Below are positions 5,850-47,309 of a stretch of DNA of 64,000 nt, piece after piece (within the stretch, counting starts at the first letter, position 1; each line of letters starts with the position of its first letter). A program made the translations under genes and the position numbers. Location: NCBI GenBank assembly GCA_964421635.1, contig CAYQWZ010000004.1:15652-79651 (forward strand), read 5' to 3'. Origin of the DNA: an uncultured Candidatus Saccharibacteria bacterium. Its GTDB lineage: Bacteria; Patescibacteriota; UBA1384; CAILIB01; JAUSJZ01. The notes beneath the pieces are model-generated. The model saw only the letters and a program-made list of their open reading frames with translations, did not search any database and was not told the origin of the DNA.

Positions 5850-6407
5850 TTGAGTAAAAAAAGATTTAACAACAATTCGAAAAATAATTGGCTTCCAGTT
5901 AACGAGCATATTTATGCTAATGAGCTAATGGTTATTGACGAAAGTTCGGGAAAAACTGAACTAATGTCAAAATCAAAAGCCCTAGCAGTTGCAGCCGAGC
6001 AGGAGTTAGATTTAGTGCTTGTCTCACCAAAAGCAAGACCTCCGGTTGCTAAAATTTTAGACTACGGTAAATACAAATATGAACAGAGCCGTAAAGATAA
6101 GCAACAGAAGAAACAGTCAAAAGCCGGGGAGACAAAAGAGATTCGTCTGAGTGTCAGAATGGGAGAACATGATCGTGAACAGCGAATTAAAAAAGCTTCA
6201 AAATTTCTTAAACAAGGCTACGGTATATCTTTATCACTGCGCTTCCAAGGAAGAGAAAATATTTTTCGGGAAAAAGGTTTAGAGGTATTAGAAGATTTTG
6301 CCAAGCGGCTTAATATGAATTTTACTGCTAGACCAAGATTCGCGGGTAACATAGTAAACGTTCAACTGAAAAAAAATGAAAGCGAAAACACACAAGAGCA
6401 AAGCTAA
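5850..6407 (+). CDS. infC: translation initiation factor IF-3
   Basis: NELMVIDESSGKTELMSKSKALAVAAEQELDLVLVSP matches the IF-3 N-domain, and C-terminal conservation follows. The true start may be a non-ATG codon as in many infC genes. The gene leads the conserved infC-rpmI-rplT order. Confidence 0.9.
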   Translation: MSKKRFNNNSKNNWLPVNEHIYANELMVIDESSGKTELMSKSKALAVAAEQELDLVLVSPKARPPVAKILDYGKYKYEQSRKDKQQKKQSKAGETKEIRLSVRMGEHDREQRIKKASKFLKQGYGISLSLRFQGRENIFREKGLEVLEDFAKRLNMNFTARPRFAGNIVNVQLKKNESENTQEQS

Positions 6408-6558
6408 ACGAATTGCTAGAACAAAATCTGGTCTCGTTTCGCGTGCTAGAGTTAATCATCAGCATATTCGTTCAAGAAAAAGTAAGCGACAACTTAGAGC
6501 TGCTAAAACTCGTACAACCTCAATTCATAAAACCGACAAGAAATTAATGCTCAGCTAA
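6376..6558 (+). CDS. rpmI: 50S ribosomal protein L35
   Basis: Small, very basic 60-aa protein (KTHKSKAKRIARTKSG...) lying between infC and rplT. It overlaps the end of infC. Confidence 0.8.
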   Translation: MKAKTHKSKAKRIARTKSGLVSRARVNHQHIRSRKSKRQLRAAKTRTTSIHKTDKKLMLS

Positions 6559-12130: not shown

Positions 12131-12159
12131 TTGACAAATGGTCTTTTTTTTGATAATGT
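12131..12159 (+). promoter_or_regulatory. near-consensus sigma70 promoter (TTGACA-17 nt-TAATGT) driving the GC-rich unit
   Basis: TTGACA at 12131-12136 and TAATGT at 12154-12159 with an exact 17-nt spacer. The predicted start site is near 12166. Confidence 0.6.
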
Positions 12160-12165
12160 ATTTGC

Positions 12166-13112
12166 ACGCTCGCATGTAGGGCCGCCCCATGATGGGCAGG
12201 CCAACACCCGAGCGCATTAACAACACGGTCCTGACATGTCACCTTGTAGCTCATCTTGGGCTACGGTGGGTGAATGCCCGGATCTCTCAGCTACGAGGGA
12301 ACTCGTAGACGCTACCCTAGATTGGAGTACCGTGTGACGAAGCCCGCGTGCTTCGTAGCGAGGAGCCACACCGTGCGGGACGGTGGTTAGGCTTTCCGGC
12401 ACCAAGCGTTGGTGACCAGGGCTCACAGGGTGGGTGCACTTGCCAGAGAGAGCCAGACAGGACTCTAAGAAGTTAGTCCCTGGCTTAACTTGGTAGGGCG
12501 TCCGCCTTGGCACAAGTACATCGACAGCGCAGTCGGGCTCGGGTGGGTGGCTCGAACGCCACTTCCCTGAGCCCGCCATCATCACTCTGAACCGCTCCGC
12601 TACAAAAGCGGCGGCGACCCATCGCGAAGAAGACGAAGGAGAGACAGATCATGATGCTCCGCGGACCGACGATGGCGCTGCACCGCAGCGACCATAAGAC
12701 CACCTGATCGACGCGCGCCACGGCCGCCTACTCGGCCGGCCGGCAGTAGGCTCTAACGCCTCTAGCCGGCCGGCCCCACCAACACCCTAGTACAAGAAAG
12801 GGTATAGTCGTGAATCAGCTGAACATCTAGGGGGTGTCTGCAACGCCTCCCTAAGACCACCTAAATTCCCAGAGAGAGACTGAATTCACTACCAGTCACC
12901 TCTCAGGTCAAGCTCGAGAGAGTATGCAGCCGGCAGCCGGATAGCTGACAGTCTCGCAAAGCCTGCGAGCCGAGTGAACAAGGCAAAACAAAAGAAAGGA
13001 GTACCGCATGCAGCGGTACCCGACCGGATTTCGTTAACTCGTGGGCTTCGGCCCACGGACAACCAAAGACCCGCGCCATGATCCCTTCGGGGTGAGCGCG
13101 GGTCTTCGCTTT
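12166..13112 (+). ncRNA. candidate large (~950 nt) GC-rich structured ncRNA of unknown class between def and fmt
   Basis: This ~1 kb block is far GC-richer (roughly 60% by eye) than the flanking low-GC DNA. It has no sense-strand ORF of 60 aa or more. Strand-specific UUCG tetraloop hairpins are present (GTGGGCTTCGGCCCAC and CCCTTCGGGG), along with long perfect stems such as GGCCGGCCGGC...GCCGGCCGGCC. It runs from a consensus promoter to an intrinsic terminator. Confidence 0.5.
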
Positions 13113-35205: not shown

Positions 35206-35225
35206 CCTGCCTGCCGGCAGGCAGG
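35206..35225. repeat. perfect 20-bp GC palindrome CCTGCCTGCCGGCAGGCAGG, copy 1 of 3
   Basis: Self-complementary 20-mer in the folD / tRNA-Val intergenic region. Near-identical copies occur at 47095-47114 and 47169-47189. Confidence 0.7.
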
Positions 35226-35304: not shown

Positions 35305-35381
35305 GGGTGCGTAGCTCAGCTGGTTAGAGCGTCTGCTTGACATGCAGGAGGTCAGAGGTTCAAGTCCTCTCGTACCCACCA
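35305..35381 (+). tRNA. tRNA-Val (anticodon GAC)
   Basis: Acceptor GGGTGCG/CGTACCC, D-arm GCTCAGCTGGTTAGAGC, anticodon loop TTGACAT, T-arm GAGGTTCAAGTCCTC, and CCA encoded. Confidence 0.85.
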
Positions 35382-37600
35382 AAATCAAACTGTAATTTAT
35401 CTCCTTTGTCTTTGGTTACACTAACCGTCATTTTCTGGTTTTCTTCCTCCTCCGTTTTTTGCTCTATTAATTTCGAGGCTAACTGATCTAAAATTTTCTC
35501 TTGAATAACGCGCTTTATTGGTCGTGCACCGAATAACGGGTCAAAGCCAATTTTTACAATCCAGTCGATAACTTTGTCGTCTACGCTTAATTTTATTTTC
35601 TTTGGCTTTAAGCGCTGCTGCACTTCTTTTATTTGCAACTTAGTAATCTCTTTTATTTCTGCTTTTGATAAAGGATTAAAAACAATTATGTGATCAACTC
35701 GATTAATAAACTCTGGCTTAAACTCTTTCTTTAATTGGTCTAATACTTTCTTTTTTGTGTCATTAAACTCTTTCTTCTCTTTACTATCGGCGCCGTCTGA
35801 AAATCCTATCGCTTGAGCGTTCAGCGCTTCTGTACCAATATTTGAAGTCATAATAATAATGGTATTTTTGAAGTTAACCACTCGCCCTTTTGCATCTGTT
35901 AGCCGGCCATCGTCAAGCACTTGTAGTAACACATTGAAAACATCTGGAGATGCTTTCTCAATCTCATCGAACAGAACTACACTGTATGGCTTTCGGCGAA
36001 CCTTCTCTGTTAACTGCCCACCCTCTTCGTAACCAATGTAGCCCGGAGGAGCACCGACTAACTTGGCTGCTGAATGCCGCTCCATATATTCGCTCATATC
36101 TACTCGAATAATTGCTTCCTCGTCATCGAACAGCTGTCTGGCAATAGTCTTGGCTAATTCAGTTTTACCAACTCCCGTTGGTCCTAAAAAGATAAATGAA
36201 CCAATTGGTCTTTGCTCTTCGTTTACACCTGCTCGCGACCGACGGATGGCGTTGGCTACCGCCGCTATAGCATCAGCCTGCCCAACAACATCTGCCGATA
36301 ATTCGTCTTCAAGATTAATTAATTTCTCAGCTTCTGAGGCCAACATGCGTTTAACGGGCACTCCCGTCCATTTAGAAACAACGGATGCAATATCTTCTTC
36401 TGTAATTTCTTCTTTCAGCAGTTTTGAGTCTTGAGGAATTTTTCGCAAAAATTTGCTCTGCTCTTCGAGCTGATCTTTCAAACTTGGAATCTTCTGATAT
36501 TTCAGCTGAGCCACTTTGGCTAAATCTCCTTCACGCTCTAATCGCTCAATGCTAGCCCGCGCTTGGTCAAGCTCAGATTTGAACTCCCGAATTTTACTGA
36601 TCACTTCTCGCTCTGCTTTCCACTGCGTTTCAATTGGCTCAATCTCTTCTTTTAACACAGCCACTTCTTTTACTAATTCCGCTCGTCGTTCTCGGCTTTC
36701 CGCATCCTTCTCTTTAGATAGGGCCTCTTGCTCAATTTCTAACTGCAATAATTTTCTTTTTAAGTTATATAAATTTTCAGGCTCGCTCTCGATGTCAATT
36801 CTCAAACCAGATGTTGCCTCGTCAATTAAATCGACTGCTTTGTCAGGTAAAAATCGGTCTGAAATATATCTGTTGGAAAGTTCCGCGGCAGCTACAATGG
36901 CTGAATCTGAAATACGAACTCCTTGGTGAAGCTCATACTTTTCTTTTAATCCACGAAGGATGGCAATAGTGTCGTCAACCGTTGGCTCTAAAACCTTGAC
37001 CGGCTGAAAGCGGCGCTCAAGGGCGGTATCTTTCTCAATGTGTTTCTGATATTCCTTAAGCGTGGTGGCGCCAATCATTCTTAACTGCCCTCTAGCCAAA
37101 AATGGCTTTAACATGTTAGCGGCATCTAAACTGCCTTCTTGAGCGCCCGCCCCAATTAAGGTGTGTAGTTCATCTAAAAACATTATGTAGCGCTCCGGCT
37201 CCGCCGTAATCTCTTTCAAAATAGCTTTAATGCGAGCTTCAAATTCGCCGCGAAAAGCACTGCCCGCCATAATTGAGCCCAAATCTAGGGCGACAATTGA
37301 TTTATTCTTTAGCATATCTGGTACATCTCCAGCCACAATTCTCTGGGCCAATCCTTCTACTATGGCTGTTTTTCCAACCCCCGGCTCCCCTATTAGCACC
37401 GGATTATTTTTTGTACGACGCGAAATTACTTGCATTACTCGACGGATTTCTTCATCTCGCCCAATAACTGGGTCGAGCTCGCCATTCTTTGCTTTTTCAG
37501 TTAAATCAATGGTGAAAACATCTAGTGCGGTTTTTTGATCAACCTGAATTCCAGGTGGAAATACTCCTCCTGGTCCCATAGGTGCCCCTGGTATGTTCAT
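35360..37600 (-). CDS. clpB: ATP-dependent chaperone ClpB lacking the N-terminal domain
   Basis: Two AAA+ modules ([15 protein letters not shown] and [13 protein letters not shown]) separated by a long coiled-coil middle domain characteristic of ClpB. 746 aa, starting directly at NBD1. Confidence 0.88.
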
Positions 37601-38196: not shown

Positions 38197-38280
38197 ATCT
38201 GTAATGTAAAGTCTACTTTACATTTTGTCAAGTTTATGGTATGATATTTAAGGTGGATTGATCCACTAACTGAACAACAT

Positions 38281-38665
38281 GGGGCCGAATAAATTAGACG
38301 TTAAATTACGTTTCGCAAATTGCATGTCGCAGCAATGAGTTTATCTGCGTTATTAAATGAACTTCCTTTAAAGACACGGAAATAGTCTTATTAGCAAGAT
38401 CAAGCAGGCTTTTAGTCCGCTAGCTCTTGCGCCAGTAGTCGCCTAATTGACTACCGTTCCCTTACCAATATCACACTTGGTGAGACCAGAGCGTCATATT
38501 GTGTGATCATCAATTTGCTCGCACCGTCACTTTGATGATTTTTGGTGCAACAGTCTATAGTGTTTAGCTGTCCTTATACCTATAGACTTAAAAAAGGGCA
38601 GAGAGCATGGTCAGTTTAGGAATGTTATTTATCGGACGCGGGTGAGACCCCCGCCGGCTCCACCA
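38281..38665 (+). ncRNA. ssrA: tmRNA (SsrA)
   Basis: tRNA-like ends: the 5' GGGGCCGAATAAATTAGACG resembles E. coli GGGGCUGAUUCUGGAUUCGACG, and the 3' GGACGCGGGTGAGACCCCCGCCGGCTCCACCA resembles GGACGGGGGUUCAAAUCCCCCCGGCUCCACCA. The acceptor helix GGGGCCG/CGGCTCC pairs. A possible tag frame ends ...SPLALAPVVA-TAA at 38444-38446, which is tentative. smpB lies 2 kb away. Confidence 0.8.
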
Positions 38666-38686
38666 AAAAAGAATGTAAAAAAAATA

Positions 38687-38709
38687 GAATCCCTGTGGGT
38701 TCTTTTTTT
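38687..38709 (+). terminator. intrinsic terminator after tmRNA
   Basis: Hairpin GAATCC-CTGT-GGGTTC followed by TTTTTTT. Confidence 0.55.
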
Positions 38710-38710
38710 G

Positions 38711-38739
38711 TTGACTAATTCTTAATCATTATGTAATGT
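38711..38739 (+). promoter_or_regulatory. near-consensus sigma70 promoter (TTGACT-17 nt-TAATGT) driving the second GC-rich unit
   Basis: TTGACT at 38711-38716 and TAATGT at 38734-38739 with an exact 17-nt spacer. This is the same -10 hexamer and spacing as the promoter at 12131. Confidence 0.55.
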
Positions 38740-38745
38740 AATCGT

Positions 38746-39200
38746 ATAGACGCGCTTACCCTCAAGGCCTTACTAGGTCGAGATACCACTCTGCTAACCT
38801 GTCCACAGGCTTGCAAAGCTCTCTGGACAACCAATCATCGGCACGATGAAACAAAAGCAAGAGACCGTCTCCAACCAGTAATCGTCGAGAGGCAACTAAC
38901 CAGCTGCGTGAGGAATCACAGATCATGAGGAGCCTCCTTCAGCTCGGCCATCCGATGGGCTTGTAGCCACTACATGTGCCCTATGCCAAAAGTGCATCTG
39001 AGGTGGTAACAAGGCCGTTTCGCCAGTCCAAAGGCGCAATTCTGTTTGATCGACTCCGGTCGACAACAGGGAAGTTCGCTCGCAAGAGTATGCCACCCGC
39101 GCTGCGGGTCTGGACACGCGATTCCGCCGCACCATCAAAGGTGTAGGCTACAACTAGCGACAACTTGTTGGCCCCGCCGTCAGGCGGGGTCTTTTCTTTT
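38746..39200 (+). ncRNA. candidate ~455-nt GC-rich structured ncRNA of unknown class
   Basis: GC-rich relative to the flanks with no sense ORF of 60 aa or more. It contains a palindromic hairpin (GTCGACTCCGGTCGAC). It runs from a consensus promoter to the terminator CCCCGCC-GTCA-GGCGGGG-TCTTTTCTTTT at 39172-39200. Confidence 0.45.
39172..39200 (+). terminator. intrinsic terminator ending the second GC-rich unit
   Basis: 7-bp GC stem CCCCGCC/GGCGGGG with loop GTCA, followed by TCTTTTCTTTT. Confidence 0.6.
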
Positions 39201-39208
39201 ACATACAT

Positions 39209-40159
39209 TTATTGCACAAAATTCCAAACAAGCTTTTCAATGGCCCAAGAATATTCACACTTGCCCGACTTGATTTGCTCATCTAGAAAATTGCTCAACT
39301 GTAAATTCTCTAACAAAAAACTTTCCGAAAAATTATTTACATAAGGAGTCATCTTTCTCACTACATAAGGATTTACCCCGCTCGTTTGATTGTATTTTAT
39401 TTGAATCAAAGTTCTAATTAGCCAATTCAGCGCTCCCATAAAGCTAGCCGCCTCTTCATAATTAACATTGCGAGCTAGAAGCATTGGCATTAGTCTTCTT
39501 AAAGCAGTTTTGGAATTTTTCGCTAACAGACTGTCAGTGACTGCAAAGTTATCCATCTCAAACCTTTTTGGAATATAGGTTAAAACATCTTCTGGTTGAA
39601 CTTCGTTTTCACAAACGCAAGCCAAAATATTTAAATAATTAGCCACTGACCACATTGATAATCCGTTAACTCTTTCAAATATTAAATCGACTGTTGAATC
39701 GTCAATGTTAAGTTCTTCTTTTTGTAAGAAATTTTTAATCCAATCTTTTAATTCAAAATTCTGCACCGCACGAGACTCGTGATATTTGATTAACTTATCT
39801 TTATATTTATTGAGCAGCTTATATATTTTCATTCTTTTATCTGGTTTCTCCCGATTCCAAAATAGAATAAAGGTACCCTCGGCCGAAACATCTTCAATAG
39901 CAGTTTTTATAAGATCAATTACTGGCTCATCAACAATACTAAAAACATGCTTAATGATAATTAACTTCTCTTCTGAGAATAAATTGCGCACTGTAATTGC
40001 TTCTTCAAGCTCTTTTTTTATACTATCTTTTTGCTGTTCACAATCTATTACCACCACCGACGAGCTAGAATATTTTTTAATAAAACGCGCCTTCACGGCC
40101 TCAAGACTTTTTAAGGATGTATAATTGTCTTCACCAAAAAATAAATGATTTTTATACAT
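39209..40159 (-). CDS. holA: DNA polymerase III delta subunit-like (HolA)
   Basis: 316-aa alpha-helical protein whose size and helical clamp-loader-like character fit HolA. Motif-level support is weak. Confidence 0.4.
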   Translation of the reverse strand: MYKNHLFFGEDNYTSLKSLEAVKARFIKKYSSSSVVVIDCEQQKDSIKKELEEAITVRNLFSEEKLIIIKHVFSIVDEPVIDLIKTAIEDVSAEGTFILFWNREKPDKRMKIYKLLNKYKDKLIKYHESRAVQNFELKDWIKNFLQKEELNIDDSTVDLIFERVNGLSMWSVANYLNILACVCENEVQPEDVLTYIPKRFEMDNFAVTDSLLAKNSKTALRRLMPMLLARNVNYEEAASFMGALNWLIRTLIQIKYNQTSGVNPYVVRKMTPYVNNFSESFLLENLQLSNFLDEQIKSGKCEYSWAIEKLVWNFVQ

Positions 40160-46965: not shown

Positions 46966-47042
46966 CGGGGAATGGCGCAGTTGGCTAGCGCGCCTGCTTT
47001 GGGAGCAGGAGGCCCCGGGTTCGAGTCCCGGTTCCCCGACCA
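46966..47042 (+). tRNA. tRNA-Pro (anticodon TGG)
   Basis: Acceptor CGGGGAA/TTCCCCG, anticodon stem CCTGC/GCAGG with loop TTTGGGA, T-arm CCGGGTTCGAGTCCCGG, and CCA encoded. Confidence 0.85.
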
Positions 47043-47094
47043 TAATAGAAGCAAATTATCCTGTTCGGGAAACGGTCGTCGTTTTACTCCAGCG

Positions 47095-47189
47095 CCTGCC
47101 TGCCGGTAGGCAGGGTAAAACGCGATCTGCTCTCTCACCTCATCAATTCTGAACTAACGTTCAGAAACCCCTGCCTGGCGGCAGGCAGG
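47095..47189. repeat. two further copies of the 20-bp GC palindrome embedded in nested inverted repeats
   Basis: CCTGCCTGCCGGTAGGCAGG at 47095-47114 is flanked by GTTTTAC/GTAAAAC arms. CCTGCCTGGCGGCAGGCAGG at 47169-47189 is flanked by CCTCATCAA/TTGATGAGG arms and contains the inner hairpin CTGAACTAACGTTCAG. Confidence 0.65.
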
Positions 47190-47309
47190 ATGTTTGATGA
47201 GGTTCCGAGGGCTTCCCTCACAGAATAATTTACTCCTTTAAATAGTCAACGAAGAATTAACTTAAAACAAAAACCCCTATTTCAAAGGGGCTTTTGTTTT
47301 TTTTATCCT

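Follow-up and report, generated by a model that had tools for sequence, protein, structure and literature searches.

What does the G+C-rich segment that directly follows the tmRNA gene encode? The segment lies in a 64-kb stretch of DNA (hereafter the window, which means the whole sequence that was analyzed). An earlier note made from the letters alone had read it as an RNA unit, with a diverged known RNA or a remnant of a mobile element as alternatives. The segment is referred to here as unit 2, and a further G+C-rich segment, located at 12131, as unit 1.

Layout of the locus

The locus reads as follows from 5' to 3':

38281..38665, + strand: tmRNA gene (ssrA), matching the full RF00023 model at 59.7 bits (Rfam); context, outside unit 2
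38711..38739, + strand: unit 2 promoter, with -35 TTGACT at 38711-38716, a 17-nt spacer and -10 TAATGT at 38734-38739
38746..39199, + strand: putative primary transcript of unit 2, about 454 nt
39170..39200, + strand: intrinsic terminator of unit 2, a GGCCCCGCC-GTCA-GGCGGGGTC hairpin at 39170-39191 followed by TTTTCTTTT

The tmRNA gene was overlooked by ARAGORN; its T-loop is UGAGACC, and the T-loop of tmRNA is usually UUCGAAU-like. A terminator-like hairpin (38686-38703) is present 3' of the tmRNA. On its other side, between the tmRNA and the divergent XRE-HSP20 gene, lies a perfect 10-bp inverted repeat (38203-38224, AATGTAAAGT-CT-ACTTTACATT), which overlaps the tmRNA -35 box, is conserved in the sister-species contig L086, and probably serves the XRE-HSP20 fusion regulator as its operator.

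As the earlier note had proposed, a TTGACT-17-TAATGT promoter is present right after the tmRNA terminator, with TGTAAT (38732-38737) as an alternative -10 element. The same note had pointed to a common -10 hexamer and spacer length at 12131, and the promoter there is TTGACA-17-TAATGT (12131-12159); nowhere else in the 64 kb is TTGAC-N18-TAATNT matched exactly. The unit 2 promoter was absent from the list of a generic promoter scan, because TAATGT has only three of six matches to TATAAT. As judged from its letters, it is weak by consensus alone, and the case for its being real comes from conservation in the sister species. The predicted transcript start was placed from the position of the -10 element and the predicted end from the terminator, whose hairpin has nine pairs, eight of them G-C, in the terminator scan. 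Next comes holA (39209-40159), a convergent gene on the minus strand whose stop codon (39209) adjoins the unit 2 terminator; therefore, unit 2 is not the leader of a downstream gene.

Composition and coding potential

The earlier description of a G+C-enriched, ORF-less segment of about 455 nt with a clean terminator agrees with the 454 nt found here, which have a G+C content of 0.55 and end in a strong terminator. The G+C content is 0.39 for the window, 0.44 for the tmRNA and 0.45 for RNase P RNA, while unit 2 has 0.51 over its first 150 nt and 0.57 over the remainder. The MFE of the whole unit gave a z of -4.1 against dinucleotide shuffles, and most of this folding signal is due to the 5' domain (z = -4.3), with the remainder at a z of about -2.

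The longest sense ORFs are one of 56 aa that begins with GTG and one of 75 aa that begins with TTG and extends beyond the terminator; the longest antisense ORF is also of 75 aa. Six ORF translations of unit 2 have no Pfam match at E <= 1, and in tblastn no stop-free segment of unit 2 in the window matched the L086 counterpart below E 0.02. For the antisense 75-aa ORF, a search of 1.84 billion representative proteins returned no relatives, only the ORF's own sequence and, at E 8e-7 to 2e-4, three weak multi-stretch matches to very long proteins. Reading TGA, TAG or TAA as sense gave no long frame common to unit 2 of both species. The note had named a match to a protein family as a finding that would count against its RNA reading, and neither Pfam, tblastn nor the protein search returned one. 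As far as can be read from the sequence, unit 2 contains no credible ORF and carries no coding signal.

Conservation in a sister species

Among 5.8 billion proteins, HolA has a single relative above 30% identity (P0002, 54%), indicating that the lineage is thinly sampled. P0002 is encoded on contig L086, which belongs to a sister species whose proteins are 54–66% identical to those of the window. Five contigs (L081-L085) carry an identical HolA and, as they match the window at 100% identity throughout the region, add no information. L087/L098, L097, L099 and L100 belong to the same species as L086 and are identical to it where they cover it. The best relatives of ClpB (35360-37600), at 56–63% identity, are mostly from Patescibacteria MAGs, including Buchananbacteria, Falkowbacteria, Magasanikbacteria and Moraniibacteriota; the window itself is part of a Patescibacteria genome.

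The gene order SmpB, small nucleotidyltransferase-like (NTase) gene, holA, unit 2, tmRNA, XRE-HSP20 and ClpB is common to the window and the sister species. In L086, the stretch from holA to XRE-HSP20 is a 1.1-kb ORF-less gap, which holds a tmRNA about 90% identical to that of the window, and unit 2. The unit 2 promoter of L086 reads TTGACAAATTCTTCATCAATATGTAATCT and is identical to that of the window at 25 of 29 nt, spacer included. Some 410 nt of G+C-rich sequence come after this promoter, and the unit ends at the equivalent place in a different hairpin (GGGGTCTCGCC-TTCG-GGCGAGCCCCC) and a T-run. The spacer between tmRNA and promoter in L086 is AT-rich, about 200 nt long and unalignable with the window. 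A tandem 34-nt direct repeat is located between the tmRNA and the unit 2 promoter (L086 6625-6708), and a 39-nt copy, 90% identical, is found near a tRNA gene in the same species (L098 6338-6375); it looks like a small dispersed repeat.

Outside these two species, ClpB-anchored loci from 80 Patescibacteria genomes gave no unit 2 homologue by blastn, nhmmer or covariance model. The three of these loci that have a nearby tmRNA carry no such unit after it; in these more distant Patescibacteria, a protein gene adjoins the tmRNA. A HolA-based metagenome scan found no further unit 2 locus, and a DNA-pattern metagenome scan returned the sister species and nothing else. Distant HolA relatives are not syntenic, and the contigs of XRE-HSP20 relatives end before reaching the unit 2 position. 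The earlier note would have doubted its own reading had relatives shown no conservation, and the promoter and the 5' domain are kept in one sister species. From these comparisons, unit 2 presents itself as a real and narrowly distributed RNA gene, seen in two species only.

A conserved 5' domain

Directly 3' of the unit 2 promoter, about 130 nt are alignable between the species, at 57% identity, and they contain one domain:

38757..38895, + strand: conserved 5' domain D1, from covariance model R1, the two-species alignment and folding z

D1 is predicted to fold into a long irregular closing stem that leads to a three-way junction with two hairpins (38800-38829 and 38835-38849), and the junction linkers are A-rich. 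The same predicted shape is obtained for L086. In both species, one of the predicted hairpins has 9–12 bp and the other has a 3-nt loop and exactly 6 bp. Both species also keep the sequence AGGUCRAGAKAYCACUCUGC ... ACCAGU.

Covariance model R1, which was built from the window copy of D1 alone (139 positions, 45 pairs), matches L086 at 6400-6523(-) with 40.4 bits and an E of 1.8e-7. R1 returned nothing else credible in the window or in 1.06 Mb of DNA from Patescibacteria; its sole other match (E 0.089) lies within the span of an AI-2E transporter gene. In the two-species alignment, 96.4% of cells pair, and 14 of the 45 pairs have changed on both sides and still pair while none has a one-sided change, figures that are inflated since the alignment was fitted to the structure of one of the two sequences. 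In controls with the partners slid by 1–3 columns, 1–3 such pairs and 35–44% pairing were found. The 6-bp hairpin stays perfect with five of its six pairs changed. Against dinucleotide shuffles, D1 folds with a z of -4.3 (window) and -4.6 (L086); on its antisense strand, the window copy reaches -2.6. The G-U pairs in the D1 helices are compatible with the + strand only. The covariation, a check that had been proposed for unit 2, amounts to one pairwise comparison because there are two species only and the contigs within each are identical; it is as strong as two sequences allow.

A fast-evolving 3' body

The remainder of the unit behaves differently from D1:

38896..39165, + strand: G+C-rich 3' body of unit 2, about 270 nt, with predicted hairpins and a multi-branched domain

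Against L086, the 3' body shows chance-level similarity only in MAFFT and blastn and is not alignable. Two further single-sequence covariance models, R2 (38895-39025) and R3 (39020-39160), were built as R1 was, and neither matched the L086 unit, even with filters off. The predicted architecture also differs between the window and L086. The z values of the 3' body are -2.1 and -2.3, those of the antisense strands being -1.8 and -1.6. The G+C content of the 3' body is 0.57 in both species, compared with 0.39–0.41 for the genomes. Unselected DNA at such divergence would be expected to drift to the genomic G+C, and some selection on the 3' body is therefore inferred; it is likely selected for G+C or structure rather than for sequence. 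As far as the two sequences tell, demonstrable conservation and structure are limited to the 5' third of unit 2.

Is unit 2 a remnant of mobile DNA?

The 3' end of tmRNA is a classical integration site, and the earlier note had considered that the segment might be a remnant of a mobile element at this hotspot. [quoted passage not shown] Its place immediately 3' of ssrA, a G+C content well above that of the genome and the 3' two thirds that are not conserved between species would fit this history. Moreover, G+C-rich, horizontally acquired protein genes do occur in these genomes (e.g., L016 and L087), and the unit lies between the arms of a weak, AT-rich inverted repeat (38667-38684 / 39193-39210, 15 of 18 complementary). 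That repeat, however, is at about chance level. No integrase or other mobile gene was found and the tmRNA 3' end is not duplicated, while position, orientation, promoter and the covarying D1 are common to two species with 54–66% protein identity. Decaying foreign DNA in a genome of 39% G+C should also lose its G+C, whereas both species hold 0.57. Blastn against phages and plasmids gave no similarity, and a viral-contig pattern scan gave three matches, all to unrelated sequences. With no integrase, no repeat of the tmRNA 3' end and synteny in the sister species, the mobile-element proposal loses its ground, and we give it a very low probability.

Other repeats around the unit were also inspected. 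A 16-nt imperfect direct repeat that flanks D1 is at about chance level, and so are the 10-mers TGTAATGTAA and TAATTCTTAA, which are common to the unit 2 promoter and the XRE-tmRNA intergenic region. Further G+C-rich islands (L016 and L087) were considered as the same phenomenon as unit 2 and rejected, the inspected ones being protein genes: a 297-aa purine nucleoside phosphorylase-like ORF (L016 8629-9522) and a 188-aa ORF (L087 5577-6143). Therefore, not all G+C-rich islands here are RNA genes; these two were presumably horizontally acquired.

Comparison with known RNA families

Across the whole window, Rfam 15 at the gathering threshold gave no match in unit 2. At E <= 10 for unit 2 and E <= 1 for L086, only sRNA models that match the terminator hairpin were returned. 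Hence, 6S, SRP, group I/II introns, ROOL, GOLLD, OLE and raiA are not supported. This result bears out the view of the earlier note that unit 2 fits no recognized RNA family, and speaks against its other suggestion, a 6S, SRP-like or other diverged RNA. A very divergent 6S RNA, SRP RNA, group I intron or large ncRNA (ROOL, GOLLD, OLE) seems to us scarcely probable.

Generally, 6S RNA is about 180–200 nt long and forms a single long hairpin with a central bubble. The 6S models (RF00013 and related) gave no match at the gathering threshold or at E <= 10, and unit 2 is multi-domain and has about 454 nt, far too long for 6S or 4.5S RNA. Bacterial SRP RNA is characterized by a domain IV hairpin with a GNAR tetraloop and by conserved loops, and its models (RF00169 / RF01854) match neither the window unit 2 nor the L086 unit. 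L086 contains two short strings, ACCAGGUCA and GCAGCCAAGG, which we take to resemble E. coli 4.5S RNA and which would favor an SRP relationship, but they are 140 nt apart and are missing from the window copy. ROOL, GOLLD, OLE, raiA and HEARO were rejected as well, with no covariance-model match in the window or L086.

Group I introns are self-splicing and have a pseudoknotted P3-P8 / P7 core with a G-binding site. In the predicted topology of D1, a stem encloses two hairpins with A-rich linkers only, which would leave no strand for P7. RF00028 gave no match at E <= 10; this is not decisive for group I introns, since tRNA genes of Patescibacteria often carry such introns that are missed by RF00028 and ARAGORN (2026 paper, PMC13011429). 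The size and G+C enrichment of unit 2 are also compatible with an intron or a large ncRNA. Because these introns escape the standard models, a split tRNA or tmRNA was looked for with the intron mode of ARAGORN; in both units and their surroundings, no tRNA or tmRNA and no exon halves were found. In addition, the neighboring tmRNA is complete, with a full-length RF00023 match, and the conserved promoter and terminator that unit 2 has of its own argue against an intron. Duplex prediction between unit 2 and the tmRNA gave energies within the range of shuffled sequences.

A candidate micro-ORF downstream of D1

A possible translation start is located just 3' of D1:

38910..38966, + strand: SD-like GAGGA (38910-38914) and a 13-codon ORF from ATG 38925 to TAG 38966, MRSLLQLGHPMGL, read from the sequence

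In each species, a single sense ORF of at least 8 aa is accompanied by an SD-like motif, and both are just 3' of D1; the L086 counterpart is AAGGAG-N6-TTG with MKGPLKLPRTEGRNRGV. The significance of this SD-like site and putative micro-ORF is uncertain. Unit 2 might be a small-ORF transcript or a dual-function RNA, in which D1 would serve as a cis-acting leader (aptamer-like or structural) for the micro-ORF about 30 nt downstream, or in which the RNA would act as both peptide message and regulator. The motifs lie at the same distance 3' of D1 (GAGGA-N10-ATG in the window), and the two start codons share one column of the MAFFT alignment. Moreover, two Leu codons of the micro-ORFs have third-position differences only, and the MFE fold of the window copy is predicted to pair the SD with a downstream CCUC. 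Sequestering of the SD by pairing is typical of regulated initiation sites, and the placement of motif and start codon is explained no less well by a coding or cis-regulatory role. The peptides, however, have 13 and 17 aa, are hydrophilic and have four residues in common; their common pattern, M-[RK]-x-x-L-[QK]-L, is too weak a likeness in peptides too short for a call. In addition, tblastn gave no match between the two unit 2 orthologues, and the micro-ORF stop is followed by about 230 nt of G+C-rich RNA and, holA being convergent, by no other gene on the same strand. A chance SD with a start codon is not rare in a purine-containing sequence of 450 nt, and a rough estimate puts the positional coincidence at p ~0.07. 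Taken together, a coding or dual-function role is unlikely but retains some appreciable probability.

Two related candidates were rejected. A riboswitch or cis-regulatory leader does not fit a unit that ends in a terminator with holA convergent and has only the 13-codon ORF after D1. The mRNA of a type I toxin carries an ORF for a small, hydrophobic, membrane-active peptide together with an antisense or overlapping sRNA, while the sole SD-preceded ORFs here encode hydrophilic peptides of 13 and 17 aa.

Unit 1 and other structured elements

The segment at 12131 was compared with unit 2:

12131 to about 13110, + strand: unit 1, between def and fmt; G+C-rich, ORF-less, with a terminator

The 3' part of unit 1, about 470 nt, aligns with L092 2317-2913 and L093 1-506, L092 being from the same sample as a sister-species contig. 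In this core, 23 of 98 predicted pairs have compensatory changes across three species (RNAalifold), and unit 1 has no Rfam match. In the window, unit 1 has an additional G+C-rich segment at its 5' side (12160-12640, about 480 nt). The conservation of the core with compensatory changes in its predicted pairs argues that unit 1 is a real conserved structured RNA, separate from unit 2. In relatives at 44% identity, Def and Fmt are fused in one protein (P0011, P0012).

The earlier note had suggested a set of structured RNAs, perhaps with a shared regulator, and had advised that the two units be compared. Both are structured, which upholds the first part of the suggestion, but they are not of one kind: there is no sequence similarity between them, and R1 matches neither unit 1 nor its homologues. 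Two strings, AAGGAGAGAC and ACAGATCATGA, link unit 1 with both unit 2 orthologues near the SD-like site, each at an estimated chance level. A shared regulator is not borne out either. The promoters of RNase P RNA and of unit 1 in the sister species are both TTGACA-17-TATATT, and that of the tmRNA is TTTACA-17-TATGAT; as judged from these sequences, TTGACA-17-TAnnnT is the ordinary sigma-70-type form for stable-RNA promoters here. A form so general for stable RNAs does not indicate a common dedicated regulator, and the spacer sequence that is conserved between the unit 2 orthologues is not common to unit 1.

A further ORF-less element is located at 47043-47305 (+), immediately after tRNA-Pro (46966-47042). 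It is G+C-rich, measures about 190 nt and has a terminator-like hairpin behind it. The element folds extremely well, with an MFE of -108.6 kcal/mol (z = -10.2), contains two copies of the palindrome CCTGCCTG(C/G)CGG(C/T)AGGCAGG and matches no Rfam family. The 20-nt G+C-rich palindrome CCTGCCTGNCGGNAGGCAGG occurs at 35206-35225, 47095-47114 and 47170-47189 (3 observed versus 0.03 expected); each copy adjoins a tRNA gene, and the palindrome may be a REP-like repeated hairpin.

What unit 2 may be

We regard it as probable, if only modestly so, that unit 2 is a stand-alone ncRNA gene of about 420–455 nt that is restricted to a narrow lineage of Patescibacteria. The promoter, the terminator and the conserved D1 speak for the independent, structured and ORF-less RNA unit that the earlier note had put forward, while the mobile-element and known-family readings are both unlikely. 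The layout, the lack of a coding signal, the conserved and covarying D1, the synteny and the absence from Rfam were all observed directly, and they suggest the following picture. Unit 2 would be transcribed from its own sigma-70-type promoter, starting right after the tmRNA terminator, and transcription would stop at the strong intrinsic terminator before the convergent holA. The part under selection would be the promoter and the 5' domain of about 130 nt with its predicted three-way junction, while in the other 300 nt or so, G+C and moderate folding would be kept as sequence and predicted architecture change freely. The product would most likely be a stable, trans-acting RNA, in which the 5' domain might be a binding module for a protein or another partner, and the G+C-rich tail and terminator hairpin might mainly provide bulk structure and nuclease resistance. 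Unit 2 would then be an orphan ncRNA of a familiar general kind that belongs to no described family.

A bolder reading is that this lineage holds several undescribed structured RNAs, namely unit 2, unit 1 and the tRNA-Pro element. Here, the three-way-junction core of unit 2 would be the active portion of an RNA of a new functional class, such as a ribonucleoprotein component or a ribozyme, and the hypervariable module would be under diversifying selection, for example in host/phage interaction. Units 1 and 2 do appear to have an unusual build in common, a small conserved core with a rapidly replaced G+C-rich module, but to this reading as a whole we assign only a low probability.

The genomes of Patescibacteria are tiny, and well over 1.5 kb of the 64 kb is given here to RNAs outside known families. 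If expressed and functional, these would be additions to the short list of bacterial structured RNAs without an assigned function, and unit 2 would offer a compact domain of about 130 nt that is amenable to laboratory testing. At present, only two uncultivated species are known to carry the unit 2 family, which limits its general importance.

Comparison with known systems

Like tmRNA-adjacent genomic islands, unit 2 lies immediately 3' of ssrA; unlike them, it has no integrase, att repeat or cargo genes and is syntenic, with a conserved promoter and RNA domain. Unit 1 resembles it in the sigma-70-type form of the promoter, the high G+C, the lack of an ORF, the terminator and the compensatory changes in sister species, and each appears to combine a conserved core with a lineage-specific G+C-rich part. 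The arrangement is reversed, however, as the core of unit 1 is its 3' part of about 470 nt and its variable part is 5', whereas the core of unit 2 is 5'.

RNAIII of S. aureus is a dual-function RNA, which encodes a peptide and acts as a regulator. It has no sequence or family relation to unit 2, in which the peptide is not conserved and both translation of the ORF and targets are only candidates. The likeness is in the build, as unit 2 is also a highly structured RNA, measures about 0.5 kb, has a promoter and a terminator of its own and contains a very small ORF close to its 5' part. The orphan RNAs raiA, OLE, ROOL and GOLLD are large or medium structured ncRNAs of bacteria that came to light as G+C-rich intergenic regions of AT-rich genomes. 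Compared with these, which are conserved over most of their length, unit 2 is conserved in its 5' third only, has been seen in two species and matches none of their Rfam models. It shares with all four a stand-alone and ORF-less organization, a G+C content above that of an AT-rich genome and a predicted structure partly supported by covariation, and, as with ROOL and GOLLD, its gene is located near tRNA-like genes.
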